34,146 nucleotides of DNA, from NCBI GenBank assembly GCA_000993275.1, contig LBVV01000012.1, positions 1-34,146 on the forward strand, in the 5' to 3' direction. The DNA is from a candidate division CPR2 bacterium GW2011_GWC2_39_10 (lineage in GTDB: Bacteria; Patescibacteriota; CPR2). Position numbers and translations under genes: made by a program. The number at the start of each line of letters is the position of its first letter. The first letter of the stretch is position 1. The notes under the pieces were generated by a model that made no database searches, had not been told where the DNA came from, and saw only the letters and a program-made list of their open reading frames with translations. Shown piece after piece: positions 57-33,925 of the stretch.

Positions 57-761
57 ATGAAATATTGGGGAAATAGCCTCACAAAAACCGCATTAAGCCT
101 TATAATGCTATTGATTGGAGACAAAATGGAAATATTAGAAGTTTTTGATTTAGATGGCAATCATATTGGGGAACAAGAAAGGAAATCTTTTTACGCAGAA
201 ACTAAAGCCGAATTTTTGGAAATGGGTAGGGTTTCAAGACAGGTAAAAACTATTCGGCTTATGCTTATGAACTCAGACGGTCGGATTTATGTCCAAAAAA
301 GAAGCAAACTAAAGAATGAAAATCCGGGTCTTTACGATAAAACGATTGGAGGCCATGTATCAAAAGGTCATTCATATGAGCTTACGGTAACAAAGGAATG
401 TGCCGAAGAGCTTGGATTTCCGGCAGCAGTTATGCCAAATGACCAATTTGTGCAGGCTGTTAGTAATACCGATCTAAATATTATTGGTCTTTTTAAAGAG
501 ATTGAAGTTGTTAATAGTTATTTATCAACAAGAATAAGCAAAGACGGTACTAGTTTTGCACAGTCATATTTAAGTGCTTTCTTTGTGGGTTATTATGATG
601 GTCCGATTAAATTCTCGGATGGTGAAAGCTCCGGAATCGAAGTGTTTTCAATGGACGAGCTCGAAGAAGATATTAAAAACAATCCACAAAAATACACTAA
701 AGATTTGATATATTTTATTTCTACATACAAAGAGTACTTAGTACCGATTAAGAAGAATTAA
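57..761 (+). CDS. NUDIX hydrolase. True start may be the internal Met at 126.
   Basis: Nudix box GGHVSKGHSYELTVTKECAEELG (GX5EX7REUXEEXGU-like). A rho-independent terminator follows at 807-838. Confidence 0.65.
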   Translation: MKYWGNSLTKTALSLIMLLIGDKMEILEVFDLDGNHIGEQERKSFYAETKAEFLEMGRVSRQVKTIRLMLMNSDGRIYVQKRSKLKNENPGLYDKTIGGHVSKGHSYELTVTKECAEELGFPAAVMPNDQFVQAVSNTDLNIIGLFKEIEVVNSYLSTRISKDGTSFAQSYLSAFFVGYYDGPIKFSDGESSGIEVFSMDELEEDIKNNPQKYTKDLIYFISTYKEYLVPIKKN

Positions 762-3769: not shown

Positions 3770-4290
3770 TTGCTTAGTCAGCTGGATGGTCGCCCAAACC
3801 CAATGCTTCGCATTGGAAGCACTAAATTCTAAATCACAAATTCTAAACAAATTCAAATGATCAAAAAACTAAAAAAATGTTTAGAGATTATAAATTAGGA
3901 TTTAGAATTTTCATTGCGTAGCAATGGTTAGGGGAGGAAAGTCCGGGCACCGTAGAGCAGGATGGTTCCTAACGGGAACCGGGAGTACATTGTTTGTGTT
4001 TGTTCTTAAGACAAATTTAAGCAATCAAGTCTAGGGAAAGTGCCACAGAAACAAAACCGCTCCGACTTTACGTCGGAGTAAGGGTGAAAAGTGAGGAAGT
4101 AAGACGCCTCTCTCGTCATGGTGACATGAACGAGTGGTAAACCCCATTCGGTGCAAGGCCGGTGGACTAATTAAACTAACTATCTGCTCGATAGGGTTTA
4201 GGCAGTCCGGCCGCATGAGGCTAATGGCAACATTAGTCCTAGATAGATGATCATTTAAACAGAACCCGGCTTATAGGCTGGCTGAGCAAC
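3770..4290 (+). ncRNA. rnpB: RNase P RNA (bacterial type A) with an atypical ~87-nt AT-rich insertion after P3
   Basis: P1 pairing ttgcttagtcagc (3770-3782) with gctggctgagcaa (4277-4289). P3 hairpin ccaatgc-UUCG-gcattgg. P4 5' strand GGAAAGTCCGGGCACC at ~3930. gtaaaccccattcggtgcaaggcc present. P4 3' strand ACAGAACCCGGCTTA at ~4256. Confidence 0.8.
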
Positions 4291-9299: not shown

Positions 9300-10490
9300 C
9301 TATTCATAACGTAGGGCTTCTAACGGATTTAGCCTTGATGCTCTTCTGGCCGGCCAAATTCCGGCGAAGGTGGAAACTAAGAAGGCGAAAACTACCACGC
9401 CAATTGCAAAAATTGGCGGCGTGTAAAACAAGTGTCCGGGTATCTGGTCTGCCGGACCGGCTTTAGAAGCCAAATAATTTATAATAACCTCAAGCAACCG
9501 GCCGATTCCCCATCCAATGGTGATTCCAAAAGTTCCGCCCATTAGCCCAATTGTTGCGGCTTCGGCGGTGAAGATTCTGGAGCAATCTTTATCCCTGCCG
9601 CCAATAGCCTTCATAACGCCTATTTCGTGAGTCCTTTCTAGAAGTGAAATAGTCATGGTGTTGAAGATGCCAATTGCGGCAACAAATAAGGCTACCATGC
9701 CAAATGCGCCTAGAATTCCGTTTATAATTGCAAAAGCTAGGTTTATGGCCGATAGCTGATTTTTAATGACGCTGGTTGAAAAACCCATGGATTCAATTAT
9801 TTTTTTGACTTCCGGTAATTGTTCCTGAGTTTTAACTTTAATTTTAATATTGTAGTAATTGCTATTCATATCGGCAAAGACCTTGAAAGGCGAGTAGCCG
9901 ATTTTGCCCGGAGACTCGTCATTTAAAACATCTACCACTTTTAGCTCTACGTCCATTGTTTTTGTCGAATCGTCTTGGCCAATGCCGGTAATGTTGAATT
10001 TAAAAGACTTGCCAATTATAGTATTTTGATCCTCTTTAAGGTCGTCGACCAATTTTTTATTAACAATAATTTCCTTGGCCGATTCATCAGTAAATTGTTT
10101 GCCGTTCTTAGTTTTTAAATCATAAACCTCAAAATGGCTGGGCTCAATGGCATATATGGCCGGCGCCAAACCTTCGTATCCATCAATAGAAGCGGAAAAA
10201 TAATAACTCGGAGTAACAACATCCACGTTGGGGATATCCTGTAATTTTTTCACCAAAGTGGCATTAAGATTTTTAGATTCCTCTTTATTTTTACTATTTA
10301 AAGTAATCACCTTCAAAGCTTCAAGGTTGGTGGTTTTTCTAATTACCAGTTTCTGGAGACCAAAACCTAAAGTAACTAAAAAGACGATTGTTGATATGCC
10401 AACTACAACACCGGAAACAGTAAGAAAGGTTCTTAGCTTGTTGCGCATCAAGTTTCCTATGGCAATTCTTAATACGTCGATGATCTTCAA
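9300..10490 (-). CDS. ABC transporter permease, FtsX/MacB-LolE type
   Basis: N-terminal TM helix, large periplasmic domain and three C-terminal TM helices typical of the FtsX family. 4-nt overlap with the upstream ATPase gene. Confidence 0.8.
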   Translation of the reverse strand: MKIIDVLRIAIGNLMRNKLRTFLTVSGVVVGISTIVFLVTLGFGLQKLVIRKTTNLEALKVITLNSKNKEESKNLNATLVKKLQDIPNVDVVTPSYYFSASIDGYEGLAPAIYAIEPSHFEVYDLKTKNGKQFTDESAKEIIVNKKLVDDLKEDQNTIIGKSFKFNITGIGQDDSTKTMDVELKVVDVLNDESPGKIGYSPFKVFADMNSNYYNIKIKVKTQEQLPEVKKIIESMGFSTSVIKNQLSAINLAFAIINGILGAFGMVALFVAAIGIFNTMTISLLERTHEIGVMKAIGGRDKDCSRIFTAEAATIGLMGGTFGITIGWGIGRLLEVIINYLASKAGPADQIPGHLFYTPPIFAIGVVVFAFLVSTFAGIWPARRASRLNPLEALRYE

Positions 10491-11371
10491 TTTTTTACCT
10501 CTGCTTCTTCTTCTTTATTTTCGGTTTCTTTGGGGGTGGCTGGCGCTGTTTCCGGCTTTTCGGCAGGTGGTTCTTCTAGGGCCTCGCTTTTTGATTCATC
10601 TTTCGACTCATTATCTAGAGAAAAACTATCCGCTTTTGAGGCAGAAGATTTGCCTTTTTCGTTAAAAGTTACGGCGTGGGCGTTTGCTTCCACTTTTATA
10701 ACTTTACCGTCCTGCATCCAAAAAACCCTGTCCGCAAATTGAAGGTAATCCGGGTTGTGAGTGATTAAAATAACCGTCCTTTTGGATTTTCTATTTAGAG
10801 AAACCAAGAGCCGCATAACATCATCGGCTGATTTAGAATCCAAATTACCGGTTGGCTCGTCAGCAAGCATTATCCACGGGTTGGCAACAAGTGAACGGGC
10901 AATGGCAATTCTTTGCTGCTGACCACCTGAGAGTTGATTTGGCGCCCTGTTTTTGTATTTGCTCATCCCAACAATTTCCAGTAAATTTTCCGCTCTTTTT
11001 ATTCTTCTTCCTTTGCTGATTCTTGCAAAAGCAAGCGGAAGTGAAATATTTTCTACCACGTTCATGGTTTGAATTAAATTAAAAGCCTGAAAGACCATAC
11101 CTATTTTGGTTCTTCGATGCTGTGCCAATTCATTAGAATCAAGTTTGGCTAGATCTTCGCCGCGGATTAAAATGCTGCCGGTAGATGGCGGCTGCAGTCC
11201 GGCGATCATGCTCATTAATGTTGACTTGCCGCAACCGGATACCCCAAAAAAGACAATAAATTCACCGGAATATATTTCCAGGCTAACTGATTGCAAGGCC
11301 TGTACTTCAATATCTCCAAGCATAAATTTCTTGGATAAATTATTTATTTTTATGACGGGTGCCTTGGCCAT
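10487..11371 (-). CDS. ABC transporter ATP-binding protein (MacB/LolD-like) with acidic/Pro-rich C-terminal tail
   Basis: Walker A GVSGCGKST, signature LSGGQQQRIAIARSL, Walker B IMLADEPTGNLD. ~60-aa low-complexity tail. Confidence 0.85.
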   Translation of the reverse strand: MAKAPVIKINNLSKKFMLGDIEVQALQSVSLEIYSGEFIVFFGVSGCGKSTLMSMIAGLQPPSTGSILIRGEDLAKLDSNELAQHRRTKIGMVFQAFNLIQTMNVVENISLPLAFARISKGRRIKRAENLLEIVGMSKYKNRAPNQLSGGQQQRIAIARSLVANPWIMLADEPTGNLDSKSADDVMRLLVSLNRKSKRTVILITHNPDYLQFADRVFWMQDGKVIKVEANAHAVTFNEKGKSSASKADSFSLDNESKDESKSEALEEPPAEKPETAPATPKETENKEEEAEVKN

Positions 11372-11399
11372 TAAAAGAAATACCCTCCCTTAATAATTA

Positions 11400-12935
11400 T
11401 TATAAGTGAGAATGGGTTTGAGTGAAAGAGTTTTTCTGTCGATATTGGAGAGCTTCTAAAACATGTTCCTCTCTTATGTTCTCGCTATTTTCTAAATCGG
11501 CTATAGTCCTTGAAATTTTTATGATTCGATGATAAGCCCTGGCCGAAAGCGCCATTTTTTCGGCAGCCATTTTTAAGGTTTCCTGAATCTTTTTGTCCAG
11601 CACGCAATAGGTTTTTAAATCTTCGTTTGTCATTTCGGAGTTTGTCAAAATATTTTGGCTGGCAAATCGTTTAAACTGAATTTCCCTTGCGAAAGATACC
11701 CTTTCCCTTACGATTTCAGAACTTTCTCCTTCTTTTAGACTTTGCATTTCTTCAATATTAATTCTGGGAACTTCTAAATGAAGATCAATCCTGTCTAAAA
11801 GGGGTCCTGAAATTTTGCTTTGATACTTAATTATGGCCGATTGGGCACAGCGGCATTCTTTCTTGGAGTCGCCGAGATTTCCGCAAGGGCAGGGATTAGT
11901 TGAGGCGACCAGAATAAATTTTGCCGGATATTTAATGGATCCTTGAGCCCTCGAAATTACAATGCTGCCTTCTTCCAGGGGTTGTCTTAAAACTTCCAAA
12001 ACGGTTCGCGGGAATTCGGCTAGCTCGTCTAAAAACAAAACACCTCTATGGGACATCGATATTTCTCCGGGCTTCGGATTTTTACCTCCGCCGATAAGAG
12101 AGATATTTGACGCTGTGTGGTGCGGAGACCTAAAGGGTCTAGTCTTTTTTAAGCCTTCGTTTTCTTCAAGTGTTCCGGCAACCGAATAGATTTTGGTTAT
12201 TTCAATTGCTTCAGAGAGGCTAAGTTCGGGTAAAATGCCCGGCAAACTTTTAGCCAGCATAGTTTTTCCCGACCCCGGAGGTCCAAAAAACAAAATATTA
12301 TGACCACCGGCGGCGGCAATTTCCAAGGCTCTTTTGGCATGAAGTTGACCCTTAATTGCCGAGATATCCAGATAATGGTTTTCTGTATGGCCGGAAAAAG
12401 GTTCGATTCTTTCCGGAATTAGCCTTTTTTCGTTATTTAAGTGGAAAATTAAATCTTTAAAATTTGAGAGGCCAAAAGTTTTCAGGTTGTTTTCCGGTAT
12501 TTCTTTAACATTAGAGGACGGCACATAAACTTCGCTAACTTTTAGTTTCTCAGCTTCTAAAATGATCGGCAAAATTCCGTTAGTATGCCTTAGGCTGCCA
12601 TCTAAAGAAAGTTCACCGAGAGCCAGAATTTCATTAAAATTTGCCTTAACTTGTACGGAAGCGGCCATAATTCCAAGGGCAATTGGCAAATCATAGGCCG
12701 GTCCTTCTTTGGGAATGTCCGCCGGGGCCAAATTAACGGTTATTCGGTTTTGAGGAAAGCGAAAACCGCTGTTTTTAATGGCTGCCCTTACCCTTTCCTT
12801 AGCTTCTTCAACCGCTTTGTCCGGCAGTCCAACAATAATAAATGCAGGCAAACCATCGGAAAGATCAACTTCAATTTGCATTTTAATTATTTTAAGCCCC
12901 CATGTGGTTGCTGATTTTATCTTTGCTAAGGCCAT
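11400..12935 (-). CDS. comM: YifB/ComM family Mg-chelatase-like AAA+ ATPase
   Basis: N-terminal MALAKIKS...VDLSDGLPAFIIVGLPD, Walker A GPPGSGKT and a C-terminal ChlI domain. Start moved to ATG 12935. The upstream 70 codons of the track ORF have no homology and cover a TGTATAAT -10 box. Confidence 0.75.
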   Translation of the reverse strand: MALAKIKSATTWGLKIIKMQIEVDLSDGLPAFIIVGLPDKAVEEAKERVRAAIKNSGFRFPQNRITVNLAPADIPKEGPAYDLPIALGIMAASVQVKANFNEILALGELSLDGSLRHTNGILPIILEAEKLKVSEVYVPSSNVKEIPENNLKTFGLSNFKDLIFHLNNEKRLIPERIEPFSGHTENHYLDISAIKGQLHAKRALEIAAAGGHNILFFGPPGSGKTMLAKSLPGILPELSLSEAIEITKIYSVAGTLEENEGLKKTRPFRSPHHTASNISLIGGGKNPKPGEISMSHRGVLFLDELAEFPRTVLEVLRQPLEEGSIVISRAQGSIKYPAKFILVASTNPCPCGNLGDSKKECRCAQSAIIKYQSKISGPLLDRIDLHLEVPRINIEEMQSLKEGESSEIVRERVSFAREIQFKRFASQNILTNSEMTNEDLKTYCVLDKKIQETLKMAAEKMALSARAYHRIIKISRTIADLENSENIREEHVLEALQYRQKNSFTQTHSHL

Positions 12936-13225
12936 ATACAAATTATACACGGAAAAAGGTACAATCTTCAAGACAATTGACGGTTGCCAAAAAAAGACTT
13001 GTGTGATATCATTTAGTATCCTCTTGCCAATAACAAAGGGCACATTTGGGTAAGTAGGTAAAATTAAACAGGACTTACGCAAAATAGCGCATCTATCCAA
13101 GCCAGAACCAAGTGAGATAAAATCTCTTTTCTCTACTGGAAGCATATCCGTAGATACGCTGACAGGAGAAAAAGGGATTTTAGCCGCTTGGTTTGGTTTG
13201 GGAAAGAAAGAGGGCGAAAGGGAAT

Positions 13226-13849
13226 ATGGCCAGAATTTGGGTTCCCAGCCTTTTTAAAAGCCTAACAACCAAATACCTGCACAGCTTGAATTGGCAAAAA
13301 ATAACTCGAAACTTTCTTAAGCTTGTTTTGATTTATTTGCTTTTGGAACCTATTTTGATACCCACCTTAGTTAGCCTTGAGGCTAATTCCAATTCAAAAA
13401 ATAAACCGAAAATAGTTAAGCGGATTTTATCAGCTTATACAATAAAATCTCAGTATGCCGAAGCGAATATTCAGAATGCCTCCTATTTACCTTCCAGCGG
13501 TTATGCCTGGCCCGTGAGGGGAGGGTTAACCCAGTATTTCCACTACGGACATCCGGGGCTCGATATTGCGCTGCCTTCAGGCAACCCTTGTGTTGCTTCA
13601 AAAAGTGGCATTGTCGAATATGCAGGATGGAGTAAAGGTTACGGAAATAATGTTGTTTTGTCCCATCCCGATGGTTCAAAAACCAGATACGCGCATTTTT
13701 CGGTAATTTTGGTTAAAACCGGACAAGGAGTTACCCAGGGTCAAGCAGTTGGTAAAGTTGGCAGTACGGGTTGGAGCACCGGCCCCCATGTTCATTTTGA
13801 AATTTACGAAAAAGGAATAGCAGTTAATCCTTTAGCAAGGCTAAAGTAA
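13226..13849 (+). CDS. M23 family peptidase (LytM-like), membrane-anchored
   Basis: HYGHPGLDIA and GPHVHFEI zinc-binding motifs, N-terminal TM segment. ATG 13226 preferred over the TTG at 13193. Confidence 0.75.
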   Translation: MARIWVPSLFKSLTTKYLHSLNWQKITRNFLKLVLIYLLLEPILIPTLVSLEANSNSKNKPKIVKRILSAYTIKSQYAEANIQNASYLPSSGYAWPVRGGLTQYFHYGHPGLDIALPSGNPCVASKSGIVEYAGWSKGYGNNVVLSHPDGSKTRYAHFSVILVKTGQGVTQGQAVGKVGSTGWSTGPHVHFEIYEKGIAVNPLARLK

Positions 13850-13862
13850 GACAGAATTAAGA

Positions 13863-13969
13863 ATAATGAATTATGAATTAAGTATGTCAATGTAGAATAA
13901 AAGAAAGAAAACTATATTCTAATATTCCATATTCCCATTCTTGGGGCTTTATACTAAATTCTTTATTCT
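13863..13969. repeat. AT-rich dispersed repeat, copy B
   Basis: Homologous to 9161-9283. Confidence 0.6.
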
Positions 13970-13997
13970 GTATTAGTTCTGTGCTAGAATAATCGGC

Positions 13998-15266
13998 ATG
14001 AAATATTTTATTTTAGTTTTGGGCTGCCAAATGAATAATTCTGATGCTCTGAGAATAGAGACGGTTCTAAACGGCTTGAGATATGAAAAAACGGGGAAAG
14101 AAAAAGATGCTGATTTGATTGTGGCAGTTGCTTGCTCCGTTCGGCAATCCGCCATTGACCGAATTTACGGCAAGGTTAGAAATTGGCAAAAGGAAAAAAA
14201 TAAAAGAAAGCTTGTAACGGTTTTAACCGGATGCGTACTTCCGGCAGACAAGAAAAAATTTTCCAAAGTTTTTGATTTGGTTTTTAATATCGAAAACCTG
14301 CCATTGCTTTCTAAAATGCTTAATAATTTAGAAGAAGCAAATGTTAAGGAAAGAGGGGAGTATTTAAAGCTAAAATCCATGCATAGCTCCGGCTTCCAAT
14401 CTCTTGTTCCTATAATGACGGGATGTAATAATTTTTGTGCTTACTGCGCCGTTCCTTTTACCCGTGGCCGGGAATATTCAAGACCGATTGAAGATATTAT
14501 TTCAGAAGTAAAAGAACTTGTAGAAAATGGCTGCAAAGAAATAACCTTGCTTGGCCAAAACGTTAATTCTTACGGAAATGATAAAAAAGATTTGCCGAAT
14601 TTTGCCGAACTTTTATCGAAAATCAATGATGTTCCGGGCGATTTTTGGATTAGATATATTACTTCGCATCCCAAGGATATGTCCGATGAACTGATCAAAA
14701 AATTTGTTCAGTGTTCAAAGGTTTGCGGATATTTGCATCTCCCATTGCAAGCGGGAAGCGACCAAGTCCTAAAAAACATGAATCGTAATTATACGTATGA
14801 GCATTATAAAGATTTGATAGAAAAAGTAAGAGCTGAAAAGTTGGATATTGCTATTTCAACCGATATCATCGTGGGCTTTCCGGGGGAGACAATTGAACAA
14901 TTTGAGGATTCGATGAAAGCTTTTGGGGAAATTAAATATGACATGGCTTACATCGCTCAGTATTCTCCGCGCTCCGGCACTAAGGCCGCTACTTTTGACG
15001 ACAATGTAGATAAAAAAGAAAAGAAACGCAGACTAAAGGTCCTTACCAAAATTTTAGCGGGTACCGCATTGGAAAAAAATAAAAAATATGTCGGTAAAAC
15101 GGAAAAAGTTTTGGCGGAAAAATTTGAGAAAGGGTTATTATTCGGTCATACCGATTCTTTCAAATTGGTTGCAATCTCCGGAGGAAGTAAGAATTATGTC
15201 GGCCAGTTTGTTATGGTAAAAATTATATCTGCAAACCCCTGGGCGCTAGAAGGAAAATGTCTATGA
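13998..15266 (+). CDS. miaB: tRNA-i6A37 methylthiotransferase (radical SAM MTTase, MiaB)
   Basis: N-terminal LGCQMN, radical-SAM CNNFCAYC and a C-terminal TRAM region. Adjacent to miaA. Confidence 0.8.
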   Translation: MKYFILVLGCQMNNSDALRIETVLNGLRYEKTGKEKDADLIVAVACSVRQSAIDRIYGKVRNWQKEKNKRKLVTVLTGCVLPADKKKFSKVFDLVFNIENLPLLSKMLNNLEEANVKERGEYLKLKSMHSSGFQSLVPIMTGCNNFCAYCAVPFTRGREYSRPIEDIISEVKELVENGCKEITLLGQNVNSYGNDKKDLPNFAELLSKINDVPGDFWIRYITSHPKDMSDELIKKFVQCSKVCGYLHLPLQAGSDQVLKNMNRNYTYEHYKDLIEKVRAEKLDIAISTDIIVGFPGETIEQFEDSMKAFGEIKYDMAYIAQYSPRSGTKAATFDDNVDKKEKKRRLKVLTKILAGTALEKNKKYVGKTEKVLAEKFEKGLLFGHTDSFKLVAISGGSKNYVGQFVMVKIISANPWALEGKCL

Positions 15267-15332
15267 TAATGTCAAATTTCAAATATCAAATGCCAAATAA
15301 AATTCAAATGCTAAAAATCCTAAATACTAAGC

Positions 15333-15366
15333 ACCTGTCTCGACTGGCGTCTTGCCAAGGCGGACC
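15333..15366. repeat. GC-rich hairpin repeat, copy 2 (degenerate)
   Basis: acctgtctcgactggcgtcttgccaaggcggacc shares the CCTGTCTCG and CCAAGGCGG halves with 6311-6343 and 33735-33787. Confidence 0.45.
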
Positions 15367-15551
15367 AAATTCTAAACAAATAATAATATCAAATGTTCTA
15401 AACGTTTTAATAACTGAGATTCTTGACCCATCGGGTCATCAACCGAAGGTTGAGAAATTGTTTAGTATTTAGGTATTAGGATTTATAATTTTAAGTAGTT
15501 TATCATTTTTTTGTCTATTAATTAATTCGTAAAAAACGTTAAAATATAATC

Positions 15552-16445
15552 ATGGAGAAACCTATGATTGTCATTATTGGTCCTACGGCGAGCGGAAAAA
15601 CTTCGCTTTCTATTAATCTTGCCAAGAAATTTAATGGCGAGATTGTTAACGCGGATTCTCAAAACGTTTATCGGGAAATGGACATTGGTACGGCTAAACC
15701 GAGTATTGAGGAACAACAGGAAGTGCCGCATCACATGTTAGATATTGTGGACCCGGATCAGGAATTTAATGTTGCGATTTATAAAAAAATGGCTAAGGAG
15801 GCTATTGGTAAAATTCAAGAAGCGGGAAAAATACCTTTTTTGGTTGGTGGAACCGGACTTTATATTGACGCCTTAATTTATAACTATCATATTCCGGAAG
15901 TAAAACCGGATAACAAATTAAGGGCTGAACTTTCTTTAAAGGATAACGATGAGTTGGCGGCAATTTTGGATGAGTTAGACCCGGAGGCGGCCGGCACCAT
16001 TGATCCTAATAACCGTAGGCGGGTAATTAGAGCAATAGAAATTATTAAAGGCTCCGGTAAGCCACTTTCGGCCATGCGGTCAATGGAAGGCAAGCCGGAA
16101 AATGTTTTAATGTTGGGGACGGCTTTTTATGAAAAAGAAGAGCTTTACGAGAGAATAAACTTGAGGGTAGATCAGATGTTTGAGGAGGGTTTTTTGGAGG
16201 AATTTAAAGAACTTGCCGATAGCTATCCTTGGGATATTCCGGGTTTTAATGCCTTGGGATATCGTCAACTTGCCTTATATTTCAAAAAAGAGATTGATTT
16301 GTCTATGACAATGGAGACAATCAAAAAAGAAACCAGAAATTACGCCAAACGCCAGATGACATGGTTTAAGAGGAACAAGGATATTGTTTGGGTGAGAGAC
16401 GAATTTCAAGCTTTCGATATAGTTGAGAAATTTATTGCTCAATAG
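15552..16445 (+). CDS. miaA: tRNA dimethylallyltransferase
   Basis: IVIIGPTASGKTSLSINLAKKFNGEIVNADSQNVYREMDIGTAKP is the canonical MiaA N-terminus. Confidence 0.85.
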   Translation: MEKPMIVIIGPTASGKTSLSINLAKKFNGEIVNADSQNVYREMDIGTAKPSIEEQQEVPHHMLDIVDPDQEFNVAIYKKMAKEAIGKIQEAGKIPFLVGGTGLYIDALIYNYHIPEVKPDNKLRAELSLKDNDELAAILDELDPEAAGTIDPNNRRRVIRAIEIIKGSGKPLSAMRSMEGKPENVLMLGTAFYEKEELYERINLRVDQMFEEGFLEEFKELADSYPWDIPGFNALGYRQLALYFKKEIDLSMTMETIKKETRNYAKRQMTWFKRNKDIVWVRDEFQAFDIVEKFIAQ

Positions 16446-16577
16446 TCTTTAATTCAAAAATCAAATCTCAAAAGTCAAAATGATAAATTAAAAGTCAAAA
16501 TTTTTTAATTATTAATTATCATTATGATCTTTGATTTTTGCATTTTGATTTGGTCTATTTTGAGTTAAAATAGAACC

Positions 16578-17963
16578 ATGAGATTATTTATTGCTCTTTG
16601 GGTTGGCAAATTTTTGTTGTTTTTGACCAGGAAAACCAAAAAGGGTGGCGGAACGGCATTGCCCGGGCTTATTGCCTTAAAAATTGATCCCAGGCTGGTT
16701 AAAAAAATTACTGCCAAGCTGCAAACGGGGTCTATTCTTGTAACCGGCACTAACGGCAAAACGACAACATCTAAATATATATTCGAGATTTTAAGGCAAT
16801 CGGGCTTTAAGGTCATTTCCAACCGATCAGGCTCAAACTTAATGCGTGGTGTGGCCTCAACCCTAATTGAGAAATCAACTATTTTTGGAAGGCCAAGAGG
16901 CAACATTGGTCTTTTTGAAATTGATGAAGCTGCCATGCCCGATGCCACTAAATTCTTAAATCCAAAAATTGTTATCGTTAACAATCTATTTAGGGATCAA
17001 TTAGACAGATATGGAGAGTTAGATAAAACGGCGTCACTCATTGCCGATTCCGTTAAAGACTTAAAAAACATAACACTGCTCTTAAATGCAGACGATCCGT
17101 TAGTCGCTTCACTTGGAAAGAATGTTGGTTCTTTAACTACGGTCTTGTATTTTGGACTTGAAGAAGATAACTACAATGCATCTTCTTTGGCTTCTTTCGA
17201 TTCCAAAGACTGTCTATTTTGCGGTCAGGAGCTTGTATTCGACAAAAGATATTACGGCCATCTTGGTATCTACCATTGTTCCAATTGTAAATTTGCTCGT
17301 CCGGAGCCGGATTTTGTAGCTTCGGGAATAGAAATTAAAGGTGTAAGGTCAGCGAGGGCAAATTTTTCCCACGCGAACGACATTCTTGCAGCCCAATTGA
17401 AGTTATCGGGGATGTATAATATTTATAACGCTCTCTCGGCATATGCGGCAGCCAAAGTGTTAGACATTGACAACAATACTATCCGGCAAGCCTTGGAAGT
17501 GGTTGCGGCGGCATTTGGCCGAATGGAAAGAATTGAAGTTGACGGCAAAGAGGTATACATAATGCTTATAAAAAACCCAATTGGGTTTACTCAAGTTATG
17601 GAAACATTATCAACCGATCCGGCAGTAAAGAATTATTTTATTGCCCTAAACGACAATTTTGCAGACGGTACCGATATTTCCTGGATTTGGGACGCGGATT
17701 TGGAGTCATTATCCAAGGATTTTAAATTTATTGTCAGTTCCGGCATTCGGGCAGAGGATATGACTTTAAGACTTAAATATACCGATCTTGACATCAAAAA
17801 AATTGATACTATTAATAATATTACCGAAGCATTTGAAAAGGCTTTATCTTTAACCGGAAATAACGAAACTTTATACGTGATGCCCACATATACGGCTATG
17901 TTTACGCTTCGAAACTACTTAAAAGACAAAGGCGTGGTAATGGATTTTTGGGAGGAACAATGA
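16578..17963 (+). CDS. murT: Lipid II isoglutaminyl synthase, Mur-ligase-like subunit MurT
   Basis: Mur ligase P-loop TGTNGKTTT and a C4 zinc ribbon CLFCGQ...CSNCKF characteristic of MurT. Followed by gatD with an ATGA overlap. Confidence 0.75.
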   Translation: MRLFIALWVGKFLLFLTRKTKKGGGTALPGLIALKIDPRLVKKITAKLQTGSILVTGTNGKTTTSKYIFEILRQSGFKVISNRSGSNLMRGVASTLIEKSTIFGRPRGNIGLFEIDEAAMPDATKFLNPKIVIVNNLFRDQLDRYGELDKTASLIADSVKDLKNITLLLNADDPLVASLGKNVGSLTTVLYFGLEEDNYNASSLASFDSKDCLFCGQELVFDKRYYGHLGIYHCSNCKFARPEPDFVASGIEIKGVRSARANFSHANDILAAQLKLSGMYNIYNALSAYAAAKVLDIDNNTIRQALEVVAAAFGRMERIEVDGKEVYIMLIKNPIGFTQVMETLSTDPAVKNYFIALNDNFADGTDISWIWDADLESLSKDFKFIVSSGIRAEDMTLRLKYTDLDIKKIDTINNITEAFEKALSLTGNNETLYVMPTYTAMFTLRNYLKDKGVVMDFWEEQ

Positions 17964-18754
17964 GAAAAATAAAAATCTGTCATTTATACCCGGATGCCAT
18001 GAACCTTTACGGAGATGTCGGCAACATTATTGCCATTAAAAAAAGGTGTGAATGGCGCGGTTTTGAATGCGAAATTATTGATGTAAAAGTTGGAGATCGG
18101 GTAAATTTTAATGACGTTGACATAATATTTATGGGCGGGGGGCAGGATAGAGGGCAGATGACCGTAGCTAAAGATTTAGTCAAAAAGGGAAAACAGATTC
18201 GAGAAGCAGTAGAATCGGACATGGCAGTTTTAACCATTTGCGGCGGCTATCAATTGTTTGGAAAATATTTTAAAACAACGGAGGGGGAGGAAATCCCGGG
18301 TATCGGAATTTTCGATGCTTTTACCGAAGCGTCAAATCAGCGTATGATCGGCAACGTTTTGGTGGATTGCCGCAGGACCACCTCGCATTGGTCCAATATG
18401 CACAAATTCAGTTTGCTGGAAAAAATGCATGCCAGTTTAGTCGGATTCGAGAACCATAGCGGGAAAACCATTTTGGGGCCCGCGGCGTATCCTTTGGGGC
18501 ATGTAATAAAGGGTTACGGAAATGACGGAAAGGGTACTTTGGAGGGTTGCCAGTATCGCAATGCTTTCGGCACCTATTTGCACGGGTCTTTGCTTCCTAA
18601 AAACCCCTGGTTTGCGGATCATTTAATTATTTTAGGCCTAAGGCACAGATACGGGTCGGATTTTGAGCTGCCGGAATTAAACGATGATATTGAAATTATG
18701 GCGCATAATGCAGCCAGAGATAGAGTCTATACGGCGAGAGTAGATCATATATAG
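17960..18754 (+). CDS. gatD: Lipid II isoglutaminyl synthase, glutamine amidotransferase subunit GatD
   Basis: CobQ-type GATase-1 motifs FMGGGQDRGQ, catalytic Cys in ICGGYQLFG and a His in the C-terminal region. Start ATG 17960 has GGAGG 4 nt upstream and overlaps the murT stop. Confidence 0.75.
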   Translation: MRKIKICHLYPDAMNLYGDVGNIIAIKKRCEWRGFECEIIDVKVGDRVNFNDVDIIFMGGGQDRGQMTVAKDLVKKGKQIREAVESDMAVLTICGGYQLFGKYFKTTEGEEIPGIGIFDAFTEASNQRMIGNVLVDCRRTTSHWSNMHKFSLLEKMHASLVGFENHSGKTILGPAAYPLGHVIKGYGNDGKGTLEGCQYRNAFGTYLHGSLLPKNPWFADHLIILGLRHRYGSDFELPELNDDIEIMAHNAARDRVYTARVDHI

Positions 18755-18778
18755 AAATGTCAAAGCTTGAGCACAAGT

Positions 18779-18926
18779 GCTGAACCGCCCTCACTTTCCA
18801 TGTTGTCATTCCCGTGAAAACGGGGATCCAGGAAGTTTGGTCTTGCAATAAAGCTACTGGATTCCCGCCTCCGCGGGAATGACGGCTATGTGACATATTA
18901 GTATTTTAAAAGTGAGGGTGGTTCAG
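18779..18926. mobile_element. MITE-like non-autonomous element (~148 bp) with 17-bp TIRs and 8-bp target-site duplication
   Basis: TIR ctgaaccgccctcactt (18780-18796) versus the reverse complement of aagtgagggtggttcag (18910-18926), 16/17 match. Direct repeat GCACAAGT at 18771-18778 and 18927-18934. Internal core TTGTCATTCCCG...CGGGAATGACGG is shared with the elements at 33030-33107 and 33718-33925. Confidence 0.6.
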
Positions 18927-19060
18927 GCACAAGTCATTTACTTTTGGTCATAATTTTGCTATATTATGTAAGTTATAGATAGGAAGCAGGAATCAGAAAC
19001 CAGGAAACACTTGAGTCGTAATATTTTCTAAATTCTTTTGCTTATTGTTTATTGACGTGC

Positions 19061-19135
19061 GGGCCGGTAGCTCAGCGGCAGAGCAGTTGCCTCTTAAGCA
19101 ATTGGTCGTGGGTTCGAATCCCACCCGGCCCTCCA
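19061..19135 (+). tRNA. tRNA-Lys, anticodon CUU
   Basis: Acceptor GGGCCGG/CCGGCCC, D-arm GCUC-AGCGGCA-GAGC, anticodon stem GUUGC/GCAAU with loop CUCUUAA, T-arm GUGGG-UUCGAAU-CCCAC, encoded CCA. Confidence 0.8.
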
Positions 19136-31135: not shown

Positions 31136-33469
31136 ATGAAAAGAGTTCAAATAAGTGTAATTGGGATTGTACAGGGGGTTGGTTTTAGGCCTCTTACTTT
31201 TAATTTGGCTAAAAAATTCAATTTGGCTGGTTTTGTTTTAAATGATTCCCTGGGAGTTAAAATTGAGATTGAGGGAAGGGCGGAGGATGTAGACAATTTT
31301 ATTTTAGAACTGAAAAACAATCCCCCAAAATCTTCAAAAATTGAAAGAATTAGTATTAAGGAAATTGATTTTAAAAAAGAGACGAGTTTTTTAATAAAGC
31401 AAAGTAAAAATACTAATAACCGCCAAAATATTTCCTCAGATTTGGCGTTATGCAAGGATTGTGAAAAAGAATTATTTGATCCCAAAAACAGGCGTTACCG
31501 CTATCCGTTTATTAACTGCTATAACTGCGGGCCGCGTTTTACGATTATTAGAAAAATGCCTTATGACCGTAAGAATACGACAATGGCAGATTTTAAGATG
31601 TGTCCGGAGTGCGAGGCGGAGTATAAAGACCCTTCTAATAGGCGTTTTCATGCCGAGCCTATTGCTTGTTCAAAGTGCGGGCCGGTAATTGCAGGAATCA
31701 GGAATCAGGAATCAGGAATCAACGTAATAGGCGAAGAAGCGATTCAGGAGACCATAAAGTTTATTAAAGAAGGCAAGATAGTGACCATTAAAGGGTTGGG
31801 AGGGTTTCAACTGGCATGTGACGCTACTAACGAAAAAGCCGTATCCGAACTAAGAAAAAGAAAAAACCGCCCAACAAAGCCCCTGGCTTTGATGGTTAGA
31901 GATTTGGAAGTGGCCGAGGAATACACAAAATTTCAAAAGGATTCGACCGTTTTAGAGGGTCTAACCCTCTTGGGGCAAGAGTCGCCTATTGTCCTTCTTG
32001 AGAAAAGAGGAAGCGATGTTTCGAATCTTATTGCTCCTAATCAACAAGATCTCGGAATAATGCTTCCCTATACGCCGCTTCATAAACTGATTTTTGAAAA
32101 CTTAGAAATTGCGCTGGTTATGACTTCGGGTAATATAAGCGGAGAGCCTATTATCACAGACAATAATGAGGCTTTGGAGAAGTTGGCCAAAATTGCTGAT
32201 TATTTTTTAATGAATGATCGAGATATTCATTCCGGTTATGACGATTCGGTGGTAAAGGTGGTGGATGGGGAAGTGCAGGTTATTAGAATGGCTAGGGGAT
32301 ATGCGCCAAAAAAAAATACTATTAATGATAATTTACCGCCCATGCTGGCTGTTGGCGGGGATTTAAAAAGTACTTTTGCTTTAGCTTGTGGTAACGAAGT
32401 TTATATAAGTCAGTATCTCGGGGATCTTCAAGGTTTTGATAATTTAAAAAGGTTCGAGGAAACGATATCCCTATATCAAAACCTATTCAAAATTAAACCC
32501 AAGTATATTGTTCATGATTTACATCCCGGCTATTTTTCAACAAAATGGGCTATAAAGCAGGGGATAGAAACTATTGCAGTCGGGCATCACAAAGCTCACA
32601 TTGCCAGCGTTATAGCAGAGCATCAAGTAAAAGAGCAGGTAGTTGGCGTTGCGTTTGATGGCTTGGGTTATGGGGAAGATGGTAATTTATGGGGCGGAGA
32701 GTTTTTTGTGGGTGATTTGGGCAGCTTGGAAAGAGCGGCCCATTTTGATTATTTTGCTCTGCCGGGTGGCGATGTGGCCGCTAAGGAACCATGGCGGGTG
32801 GCGGTATCGCTTTTATTTAAGGCAGGAGTTTCCGAACAAAAAATTAAATCTCTGTTTCCGAATAAGGATTTTATCAGCATAAAAAAGTTGATCGAACTAA
32901 AAATTAATTCGCCATTAACTTCAAGCGCGGGTAGAATATTTGACGCGGTGGCGGCTATTTTAGGCTTTGATGGACCTGTGACTTATGAAGGTGAAGCGGC
33001 AATGTGGCTAGAGAATTTAGCCTCTTTTTCTTGTCATTCGGAACTTGATTCAGAATCCTATCGTGCATCCCGAGAAGCTGGATTCCGGGTCAAGCCCGGA
33101 ATGACAAATGGGGATGGTTTTTATCCCCTTATTCTTAATACCCGAACAATTAATTTAGACAAAATGTTTGTTCAAATTATTAAGGATTTAGAAAACGGTG
33201 TTAAAAAAGAAACTGTTGCTGCTATGTTTCAAAACACTATTGTTGAGATAATTTTACAAAAAGCTGCTAATTTGGCCAGCGAGAATCAAATAAATGCGGT
33301 TGCATTATCCGGCGGCGTGTTCCAGAATAGTTTTGTCTTAAGCGTATCCGTTAAAAAACTAAGAGCAAAAGGCCTAAAAGTCTATTATAATAAAGAAGTC
33401 CCCATAAACGATGGCGGAATTGCTTTAGGCCAAGTTATTCTGGGAGCAAAATACTTGAAGAGGGTCTAA
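31136..33469 (+). CDS. hypF: [NiFe]-hydrogenase maturation carbamoyltransferase HypF
   Basis: Acylphosphatase VQGVGFRP, two CxxC-x18-CxxC zinc fingers, YrdC domain (IKGLGGFQLACDA) and Kae1-like C-terminus (LSGGVFQN). Contains the in-frame repeat insertions listed in the findings. Confidence 0.85.
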   Translation: MKRVQISVIGIVQGVGFRPLTFNLAKKFNLAGFVLNDSLGVKIEIEGRAEDVDNFILELKNNPPKSSKIERISIKEIDFKKETSFLIKQSKNTNNRQNISSDLALCKDCEKELFDPKNRRYRYPFINCYNCGPRFTIIRKMPYDRKNTTMADFKMCPECEAEYKDPSNRRFHAEPIACSKCGPVIAGIRNQESGINVIGEEAIQETIKFIKEGKIVTIKGLGGFQLACDATNEKAVSELRKRKNRPTKPLALMVRDLEVAEEYTKFQKDSTVLEGLTLLGQESPIVLLEKRGSDVSNLIAPNQQDLGIMLPYTPLHKLIFENLEIALVMTSGNISGEPIITDNNEALEKLAKIADYFLMNDRDIHSGYDDSVVKVVDGEVQVIRMARGYAPKKNTINDNLPPMLAVGGDLKSTFALACGNEVYISQYLGDLQGFDNLKRFEETISLYQNLFKIKPKYIVHDLHPGYFSTKWAIKQGIETIAVGHHKAHIASVIAEHQVKEQVVGVAFDGLGYGEDGNLWGGEFFVGDLGSLERAAHFDYFALPGGDVAAKEPWRVAVSLLFKAGVSEQKIKSLFPNKDFISIKKLIELKINSPLTSSAGRIFDAVAAILGFDGPVTYEGEAAMWLENLASFSCHSELDSESYRASREAGFRVKPGMTNGDGFYPLILNTRTINLDKMFVQIIKDLENGVKKETVAAMFQNTIVEIILQKAANLASENQINAVALSGGVFQNSFVLSVSVKKLRAKGLKVYYNKEVPINDGGIALGQVILGAKYLKRV

Positions 33470-33493
33470 CCCTCCTAAAAGAGGGTTAGACCC
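33462..33493 (+). repeat. Perfect 13-bp inverted repeat hairpin overlapping the hypF stop codon
   Basis: GGGTCTAACCCTC-ctaaaa-GAGGGTTAGACCC with no T-run after it. Sits between hypF and hypC. Confidence 0.5.
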
Positions 33494-33507
33494 TCAAAAG
33501 GAAAAAA

Positions 33508-33717
33508 ATGTGCTTAGCGGTGCCGGGAAAAATCATCAAAATAAATAAAGATATTGCGACGGTAGATTTTGGGGGTGTTGAAACCAAAGTCGGTTTGCAT
33601 TTGGTTGATAGCCCAAAAGTGGGGGATTGGGTTATTTCCCATGCCGGTATGGCAATTCATAAGATGACGGAGTGTGAGGCAAGAAAAGTATTCAGGGCGT
33701 TTGAGGGCAAAGTATAG
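33508..33717 (+). CDS. hypC: Hydrogenase maturation factor HypC
   Basis: MCLAVPGKI... N-terminal signature, ~70 aa, AAAGGA Shine-Dalgarno. Confidence 0.8.
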   Translation: MCLAVPGKIIKINKDIATVDFGGVETKVGLHLVDSPKVGDWVISHAGMAIHKMTECEARKVFRAFEGKV

Positions 33718-33925
33718 TTCGTCCTTGTCATTCTGCCTGTCTCGTTTGGCACTCACCAAGACGGGCCTGTCTCGATCCAAGGCGGGCGAAAGCAGGATTC
33801 TAGGAGGAGGAACTGGGTTCCTTGTCCCTTACAAGTCGGGCAGGCAAGCCAGGGATGAAAGAGAGTATGGATCCCGGATCAACTGATTATATTTTTTATA
33901 GGTATAGTCCGGGATGACAATAAGA
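33718..33925. repeat. Composite repeat element between hypC and hypD
   Basis: Termini ccTTGTCATTCtg (33723-) and ccgGGATGACAAtaag (-33924) resemble the TIRs of the 18779 and 33030 elements. Two tandem GC hairpins gcctgtctcg...ccaagacgggc and gcctgtctcgatccaaggcgggc at 33735-33787. Flanking direct repeat gtatagt at 33712 and 33902. Confidence 0.5.

Follow-up and report, generated by a model that had tools for sequence, protein, structure and literature searches.

The segment at positions 18780-18926 of contig LBVV01000012.1, which belongs to the groundwater-derived candidate division CPR2 bacterium GW2011_GWC2_39_10 and was analysed over its whole length of 34,146 nucleotides (hereafter, the window), is very probably a composite, non-autonomous miniature inverted-repeat transposable element (MITE). 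It would carry the ends recognised by an IS4-family, IS10-like DDE transposase supplied in trans, and would have been inserted with a 9-bp duplication of its target. The element comprises 147 bp without a real open reading frame and occupies the intergenic space between gatD and a tRNA-Lys gene.

The mobile elements of the Candidate Phyla Radiation (CPR) are poorly catalogued, and a full-text literature search found no paper treating MITEs in Patescibacteria. The element is of an ordinary kind that was previously unrecorded in the CPR2 lineage, and it leaves the knowledge of how MITEs work unchanged. The CPR2 family is tied to a widespread IS4-type insertion sequence of Patescibacteria, and this link yields a marker with which horizontal exchange between CPR classes, breaks in assemblies and rearrangements of genomes can be traced. 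The 18-bp end and the 355-aa transposase define a pair for experimental work.

Element boundaries, CPR2 copies and inner module

A sequence-only reading had described an element with terminal inverted repeats and a flanking direct repeat between gatD and tRNA-Lys, and this description was confirmed in the sequence with its measures adjusted. The inverted repeats, given as 17 bp with 16 matches, are real and extend to 18 nt with 17 of 18 positions matched. The length of the element had been put at 148 bp by counting an extra G at 18779, and is 147 bp. The proposed 8-bp target-site duplication is present as an exact direct repeat (GCACAAGT, 18771-18778 and 18927-18934), but is best read as the exact part of a 9-bp repeat matched at eight of nine positions, because intact relatives with these ends make exact 9-bp duplications. 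A flanking match of at least 8/9 has a probability of 1e-4 per site by chance. The 17-mer arm, with three or fewer mismatches allowed, occurs only at these two sites in the 34-kb window, with 0.02 occurrences expected from shuffled sequences. The segment folds as a single long hairpin (−85.6 kcal/mol, z = −10.5), and none of 200 shuffled sequences folded as well.

Further copies were sought in three sequence collections. A scan of the genome collection (one genome per species, 596 Gb) with the pattern CTGAACCRCCCTCACTTT returned 44 stretches, of which about 20 were set aside as chance: they are single matches in unrelated phyla and fit what a 17.5-base pattern yields in 596 Gb. A metagenome scan with a MITE-specific pattern returned eight stretches, consisting of the LBWX01-type sites and the loci L057 and L059; this collection is incomplete for the source organism, and even the window's own JGI contigs were not returned. 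The scan of viral contigs for the end sequence gave two single, unpaired matches, which were judged to be chance.

At least five further CPR2 copies were found, in two other CPR2 lineages. Four of them (L022, L023, L038 and L039) are located in CPR2 GWC2_39_35 (LBWX01), are 146-147 bp long and have the same ends and inner palindrome; a third, CPR2-like lineage holds a decayed copy (L057/L059), the interior of which is closest to that of the window copy. All CPR2 copies are intergenic. An alignment of all six gave 75-78% identity between the other copies and the window copy, with similarity that begins and stops exactly at the tips and with unrelated flanks. Both ends are kept in five copies, and four of these (window, L038, L039 and L022) are adjoined by 9-bp flanking repeats matched at 8/9, as illustrated by GATTTTTAT/GGTTTTTAT in L038 and GGACATATC/GGACATATT in L039. 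The terminal arms are perfect over 20 nt in L023 and L038. The sequence-only reading had called for a search for other copies of the repeat, and such copies are present in related CPR2 genomes, where the intergenic sites are unrelated and the flanking duplications differ. The absence of other genomic copies, which it had named as grounds for rejection, was not observed; nor was the flanking repeat seen as a conserved feature without the element in related genomes.

Two LBWX01 loci depart from this pattern. In L023, the sole full copy without a flanking duplication, three tandem partial MITE termini (CCTGAACCATT) adjoin the left end at 3891-3920. The fifth LBWX01 locus, L048, is a variant in which the left end is present, the right end is degenerate and the interior consists of another palindrome.

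The inner 79-bp module contains two inverted units of the form GTCATYCCCG-loop-CGGGRATCCAG and is an independent repeat family. Stand-alone modules of about 80 bp without the outer repeats are present at L057 2308-2389, 11502-11601 and 12018-12099 and at L061 8488-8563; because the inner palindrome also stands alone in CPR2 DNA, the element is composite. The exact ATTCCC-N8-GGGAAT pattern occurs five times in the 13.7-kb L057, versus 0.0015 expected per 34 kb. The same outer ends enclose other interiors in L048 and L050, and the outer and inner modules are therefore separable. The L050 element, from a Saccharibacteria metagenome-assembled genome (MAG), is a 105-bp mini-element with the same ends, a different GC-rich interior and flanks CTGGTAAGG/CTGGCAAGG matched at 8/9. 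The earlier guess of a nested or composite element was thus right. It had also placed the palindromic core at two other loci of the window: a shorter core, TTGTCATTC...GAATGACAA, is indeed shared with 33031-33107 and 33725-33920, but the exact 10-mer GTCATTCCCG is unique to the element in the window.

Beside the stand-alone modules of L057, at 2390-2450 and 11940-12020, runs of half-units (GGGGATGAC, GGAATGAC and GGGAATGAC) with short purine-rich spacers were observed, which resemble small NIME-like arrays.

Insertion sequences with the same ends and their transposase

The 18-mer of the element, with A at position 8, also ends insertion sequences in L033, L013, L042 and the La2 MAG, and the right end of the window element together with the preceding TTTA is identical over 22 nt to the insertion-sequence right end in L013 and L033. 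The ends of these insertion sequences are CTGAACC or CTAAACC. In the Saccharimonadales MAG SMAG_U15653 (L042, 5321-6503), the insertion sequence spans 1183 bp; its right end is the exact 18-mer CTGAACCACCCTCACTTT, its left end CTAAACCACCCTCACTTC has two mismatches, and the duplication TATTCTACA is matched at 9/9. In the complete Saccharibacteria genome CP064993 (L066, 2894-4075), a 1182-bp insertion sequence has the ends CTGAACCACCCACACTTC and the duplication TTTAATTTC, also 9/9. More copies are present in a Nomurabacteria contig (L065) and in the MAG OY969576 (L033, L026 and L013), in which an IS30-like element interrupts one copy and an IS256-like element interrupts another. The ends in L065 and L066 are two-mismatch variants of the 18-mer. 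All of these insertion sequences come from non-CPR2 genomes. L037 was rejected as an insertion sequence, as its end adjoins carotenoid genes without a transposase and represents a solo or truncated end.

In two Saccharimonadia MAGs, twelve copies are situated some 140 nt from the end of a contig (L016, L019, L029, L032, L041, L043-L046, L049 and L054 in JBBRSS01; L021). Such a distribution marks a multicopy repeat at which assemblies break, and the insertion sequence is a main cause of fragmentation in these two MAGs.

Each insertion sequence has a single unframeshifted open reading frame of 352-356 aa, the product of which matches Pfam DDE_Tnp_1 (1e-15; 58 bits, cut-off 23). Among NCBIfam models, those of the IS4 family score best, led by NF033591 at 80.5-82.3 bits, below its cut-off of 152. 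Because the NCBIfam IS4 cut-off is not reached, the protein is classed as a divergent IS4-family member or a new subgroup. The YREK motif was recognised as Y266-x2-R269-x3-E273-x6-K280 across 10 homologues, with Y266, R269 and K280 invariant and E273 in nine of them, and it aligns to the YREK region of Tn5 transposase (E = 0.0015). A protein search returned 1066 homologues. Most of them are encoded on contigs of about 1.2 kb, and those that are named belong to Saccharibacteria and Nomurabacteria. The cognate transposase with the same repeats that the sequence-only reading had suggested looking for was thereby found in other Patescibacteria, and its statement that the window holds no transposase gene was borne out by domain searches, gene calls and tblastn, none of which revealed a transposase domain there.

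Taken together, the copy family, the cognate insertion sequence and the composite interior support the MITE interpretation. The element is non-coding and shorter than about 300 bp, has terminal inverted repeats and adjoining duplications that differ from copy to copy, occurs in dispersed copies and shares its ends with a transposase-encoding element. From what is known of IS10 and IS50, the 18-bp terminal inverted repeats would be the binding and cleavage sites of the IS4-family transposase, and the MITE would rely on transposase made elsewhere. After excision by this enzyme, the element would have been inserted at GCACAAGTG, where a staggered cut of 9 bp would have been made between gatD and the promoter of tRNA-Lys, and repair of the stagger would have produced the flanking 9-bp duplication, which would have gained one mismatch since. 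The palindromic repeat of about 80 bp, with its two inverted ATTCCC-N8-GGGAAT-type hairpins, would have been carried inside the outer ends, and the composite would then have spread as one unit in the CPR2 lineage. We infer the transposition itself, its direction and timing and the present mobility of the window copy from these observations. The whole spacer from gatD to tRNA-Lys, with the element in it, is identical in five independent assemblies of the strain, all five of which are filled, so the insertion is fixed in the sampled population; in this strain the window copy looks fixed and is probably immobile. It is moderately old, because its ends are matched at 17/18 and its duplication at 8/9.

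What defines the IS4 family, according to De Palmenaer et al. (PMC2266710), is a DDE transposase that is encoded without a frameshift and carries the signature YREK, Y-(2)-R-(3)-E-(6)-K; its IS10 subgroup has 5′-CT ends, 9-bp direct repeats and lengths of 1200-1350 bp (Table 1, PMC2266710). The present element resembles the MITEs of the IS4 family and IS10 subgroup, for which IS10/Tn10 and IS50/Tn5 are the studied relatives, in being short, non-coding and bounded by the repeats of an autonomous insertion sequence. The 5′-CT ends, the 9-bp target duplication, the parent of about 1.2 kb and the one unframeshifted DDE transposase with YREK likewise agree with the IS10 subgroup. Several differences were noted: the parent of 1182-1183 bp falls about 20 bp under the 1200-1350 bp range, all other listed subgroup traits fitting (PMC2266710); the transposase is short and stays below the NCBIfam IS4 cut-offs; and the hosts are Patescibacteria. 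Moreover, what the CPR2 MITE has in common with the insertion sequence is limited to about 18-22 nt at the termini, its interior being a foreign palindromic repeat.

Competing explanations and related repeat families

A chance palindrome with a chance 8-bp flanking repeat has nothing to recommend it beyond its a priori possibility, and it is refuted by the scarcity of matching arms and comparable folds among shuffled sequences and by the multiple homologous copies in other genomes. That the segment is instead a structured RNA, either a small RNA or a 3′-untranslated or processing hairpin of the gatD transcript, with inverted repeats due to RNA folding, is highly improbable. The very stable fold of the plus strand would agree with an RNA, as would the two stem mismatches, both of which are G-U on that strand (−85.6 kcal/mol versus −76.1 kcal/mol for the other strand), and the element begins 25 nt past the gatD stop codon on the same strand as both neighbouring genes. 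Rfam gave a sub-threshold match to the Wolbachia small RNA WsnRNA46 (E ~1e-6), but its 37.4 bits are far under the gathering score of 65.3, and the minus strand matches nearly as well, as expected for a palindrome; at gathering thresholds, Rfam had no match at the element. Hairpin 2 of L057 contains one two-sided compensatory change, but across the six copies the RNAalifold covariation term is a penalty (+2.14), with a two-sided change in one of 46 pairs. Hairpin 1 is perfect in L057 and broken by degeneration in the four LBWX01 copies, and the better-folding strand varies among copies. A terminator scan at the element found no terminator and no terminator-like T-run. The copies lie in unrelated contexts with their own flanking duplications and insertion-sequence ends, and since MITEs can be transcribed too, an RNA would be an added role more than a true alternative. 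Permissive Rfam matches to plant and animal microRNA precursors were discarded as generic hairpin matches.

An origin as a recombination-type repeat, similar to Neisseria dRS3/NIME or REP and spread by site-specific or homologous recombination or gene conversion, is improbable; the flanking 9-mers would then be coincidental or part of the recombination site. The inner module invites this explanation by fitting the dRS3 consensus (ATTCCC-N8-GGGAAT, 20 bp; PMC1797815) once exactly and once at 19/20 in a dRS3-spacer-dRS3 layout, and L057 holds clusters of such units. In both relatives examined, the break in gene order coincides exactly with the gatD 3′ end; L023 has no duplication, and tandem CTGAACCATT fragments adjoin it on one side. 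Recombination could account for the inner module but not for the outer ends, which are identical to the ends of an insertion sequence with a DDE transposase and exact duplications of 9 bp. Immediately beside the tips of four CPR2 copies, 9-mers that differ from copy to copy are repeated at 8/9, and no recombinase was found nearby.

Several observations weigh against a MITE mobilised in trans by an IS4-type transposase. Only one copy of the element is present in the window. Every CPR2 duplication is matched at 8/9 and none is exact, and L023 has no duplication (4/9). No transposase homologue below E = 5 was detected by tblastn in about 198 kb of partly redundant CPR2 DNA, and none of the named top homologues is from CPR2. 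Only the terminal 18-22 nt of the MITE resemble the insertion sequence, which is too little to show an origin by internal deletion. The stem of hairpin 2 in L057 is kept through the two-sided change CCCCT...AGGGG, which hints at some selection on structure. An empty site was not found through GatD relatives, of which one at 90% (L006) and one at 74% (L007) were examined: L006 has a different palindromic element after gatD, and L007 is rearranged at the site. The search through the HD-domain gene downstream of tRNA-Lys found no relative above 52% identity, so no orthologous site was obtained. The predicted empty site, with the element and one 9-mer removed, would read ...CTTGAGCACAAGTG joined directly to ATTTACTTTTGG....

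The Correia repeat-enclosed elements (CREE) of Neisseria make a TA duplication and are not known to have a cognate transposase; in contrast, the CPR2 MITE has a 9-bp duplication and an identified cognate insertion-sequence family. The CREE are alike in being MITE-like elements of about 150 bp with terminal inverted repeats that are intergenic, often lie just upstream of genes and form a long hairpin if transcribed (PMC1797815), but their inverted repeats are 51 bp (PMC1797815), and the likeness is one of description. The inner module resembles the neisserial intergenic mosaic elements (NIME; dRS3-RS-dRS3), in that two 20-bp palindromes, one exact and one at 19/20, flank a 33-nt spacer, which is within the 19-214 bp range of RS elements (PMC1797815), and the units recur and cluster in CPR2 DNA. 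The two differ in host phylum, NIME arrays not being seen outside Neisseria (PMC1797815), and the resemblance consists of the 12-base consensus only. Furthermore, the CPR2 unit is carried inside a transposon, and no dRS3-specific recombinase or filamentous phage was seen.

The inner module also aligns to Rfam RF02625 (WsnRNA46) through GUCAU...GGGAUCCAG...CUGGAUUCC...GGAUGAC, but with a score this far below the gathering threshold it is not a member. Rickettsia palindromic elements insert in frame within genes, and the protein-coding palindromic elements of Rickettsia and Wolbachia have a counterpart in the window, where a sister palindrome appears to lie in frame inside hypF. A broader proposal is that the inner GTCATYCC-hairpin-GGRATCCAG units represent a cross-phylum class of palindromic repeats, with a form common to Neisseria dRS3, WsnRNA46-type repeats of Wolbachia and CPR2, kept as substrates of a conserved recombinase or structure-specific enzyme. 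In CPR2 such units would hitch-hike in an IS4-type MITE and insert in frame into genes (hypF), and the composite MITE would possibly be aimed just upstream of tRNA promoters. We consider this proposal unlikely.

Genomic setting and further palindromes

The positions of the element, its parts and its neighbours are listed in Table 1.

Table 1. Positions of the MITE, its component repeats and the neighbouring features in the window.
Feature	Position	Strand	Remark
Whole non-autonomous element (probable MITE)	18780..18926	+	six-copy alignment: similarity bounded exactly by CTGAACC...GGTTCAG
Left terminal inverted repeat CTGAACCGCCCTCACTTT	18780..18797	+	
Right terminal inverted repeat AAAGTGAGGGTGGTTCAG	18909..18926	-	
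Left 9-bp target-site duplication copy GCACAAGTG	18771..18779	.	8/9 vs 18927-18935
Right 9-bp target-site duplication copy GCACAAGTC	18927..18935	.	
Inner 79-bp palindromic module GTCATTCCCG...CGGGAATGAC	18805..18883	.	two inverted hairpin units around 33-nt spacer
Hairpin unit 1 ATTCCCGTGAAAACGGGGAT	18808..18827	.	ATTCCC-N8-GGGAAT at 19/20
Hairpin unit 2 ATTCCCGCCTCCGCGGGAAT	18861..18880	.	ATTCCC-N8-GGGAAT exact
gatD (lipid II isoglutaminyl synthase glutaminase subunit)	17960..18754	+	Pfam GATase_3, 3e-40; P0001
Promoter-like site TTTACT-17-TATATT, extended -10 TG	18937..18965	+	9/12 match, consensus scan only
tRNA-Lys(CTT)	19061..19135	+	ARAGORN; Rfam tRNA, 73 bits

The genes murT and gatD are located upstream of the element (Pfam MurT_C and GATase_3). 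The CPR2 bacterium GW2011_GWC1_39_9 (contig UT66_C0013) has proteins with 100% identity to GatD and to the HD-domain protein encoded downstream. An exact look-up of the gatD open reading frame from its TTG start gave no match; the called GatD (P0001) begins 12 nt later.

The promoter-like site, which is probably the tRNA-Lys promoter judging from its match to the consensus, starts 1 nt past the right duplication and thus 10 nt past the end of the element. The L039 copy is oriented likewise and also ends 10 nt before a TTTACA-17-TATATT site upstream of tRNA-Asp (L039 1900-1928, minus strand). The window and L039 copies, which belong to different species, therefore have a common geometry of element end, 9-nt duplication, 1 nt and TTTACN-17-TATATT, and the L022 copy lies 160 nt from tRNA-Leu. 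The element may prefer targets upstream of tRNA promoters, although two or three cases are anecdotal.

Other palindromes and rearrangements were observed at the gatD 3′ flank of the relatives. In L006, a different MITE-like palindrome of about 120 bp, CCGCGCATTTC...GAAATGCGCGG, follows right after the gatD stop codon (1985-2210). Next comes a hairpin, GTCATTCCTG...CAGGAATC, 37 nt of which match L039 1689-1725 at 97% identity. The gatD 3′ flank seems to be a hot spot for palindromic elements of this sort. A comparison of window 9300-18754 with L007 6160-15997 revealed that the Mg-chelatase/ABC/FtsX/DUF4446/bactofilin block is inverted and moved upstream of miaB, with one breakpoint of the inverted block at the gatD 3′ end, where the MITE sits.

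A 77-nt palindrome, TTGTCATTCGGAAC...CCCGGAATGACAA, is located at 33031-33107 inside the intact hypF open reading frame of the window (31136-33469), at about aa 632-657. It coincides exactly with the one stretch that fails to align with the HypF of a related CPR2 and that is 15 aa longer, and it looks like an in-frame insertion of a palindromic element. In L007 the corresponding hypF position (about 300-340, minus strand) carries another palindrome, AGAGGGTCTAACCCTCGTACCCGAGGGTTAGACCCTCT; the two lineages thus have different palindromic repeats at a single coding site. A GAGGGTCTAACCCTC-N6-GAGGGTTAGACCCTC repeat, as in the L007 hypF, is present at the 3′ end of the window hypF (33460-33495).

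Farther downstream, the interval between a short hypC-like open reading frame (about 33509-33717) and the gene that follows contains another palindromic element (33725-33920), which is about 195 bp long and has TTGTCATTC / GGGATGACAA ends. Over its first 45 nt, this element shares 91% identity with L057 11498-11542. Two long, AT-rich imperfect palindromes were also recorded in the window: one with 57-nt arms at 3793-3934, just ahead of the RNase P RNA gene (3895-4289) and extending over its start, and one with 50-nt arms at 16451-16551, between miaA and murT.

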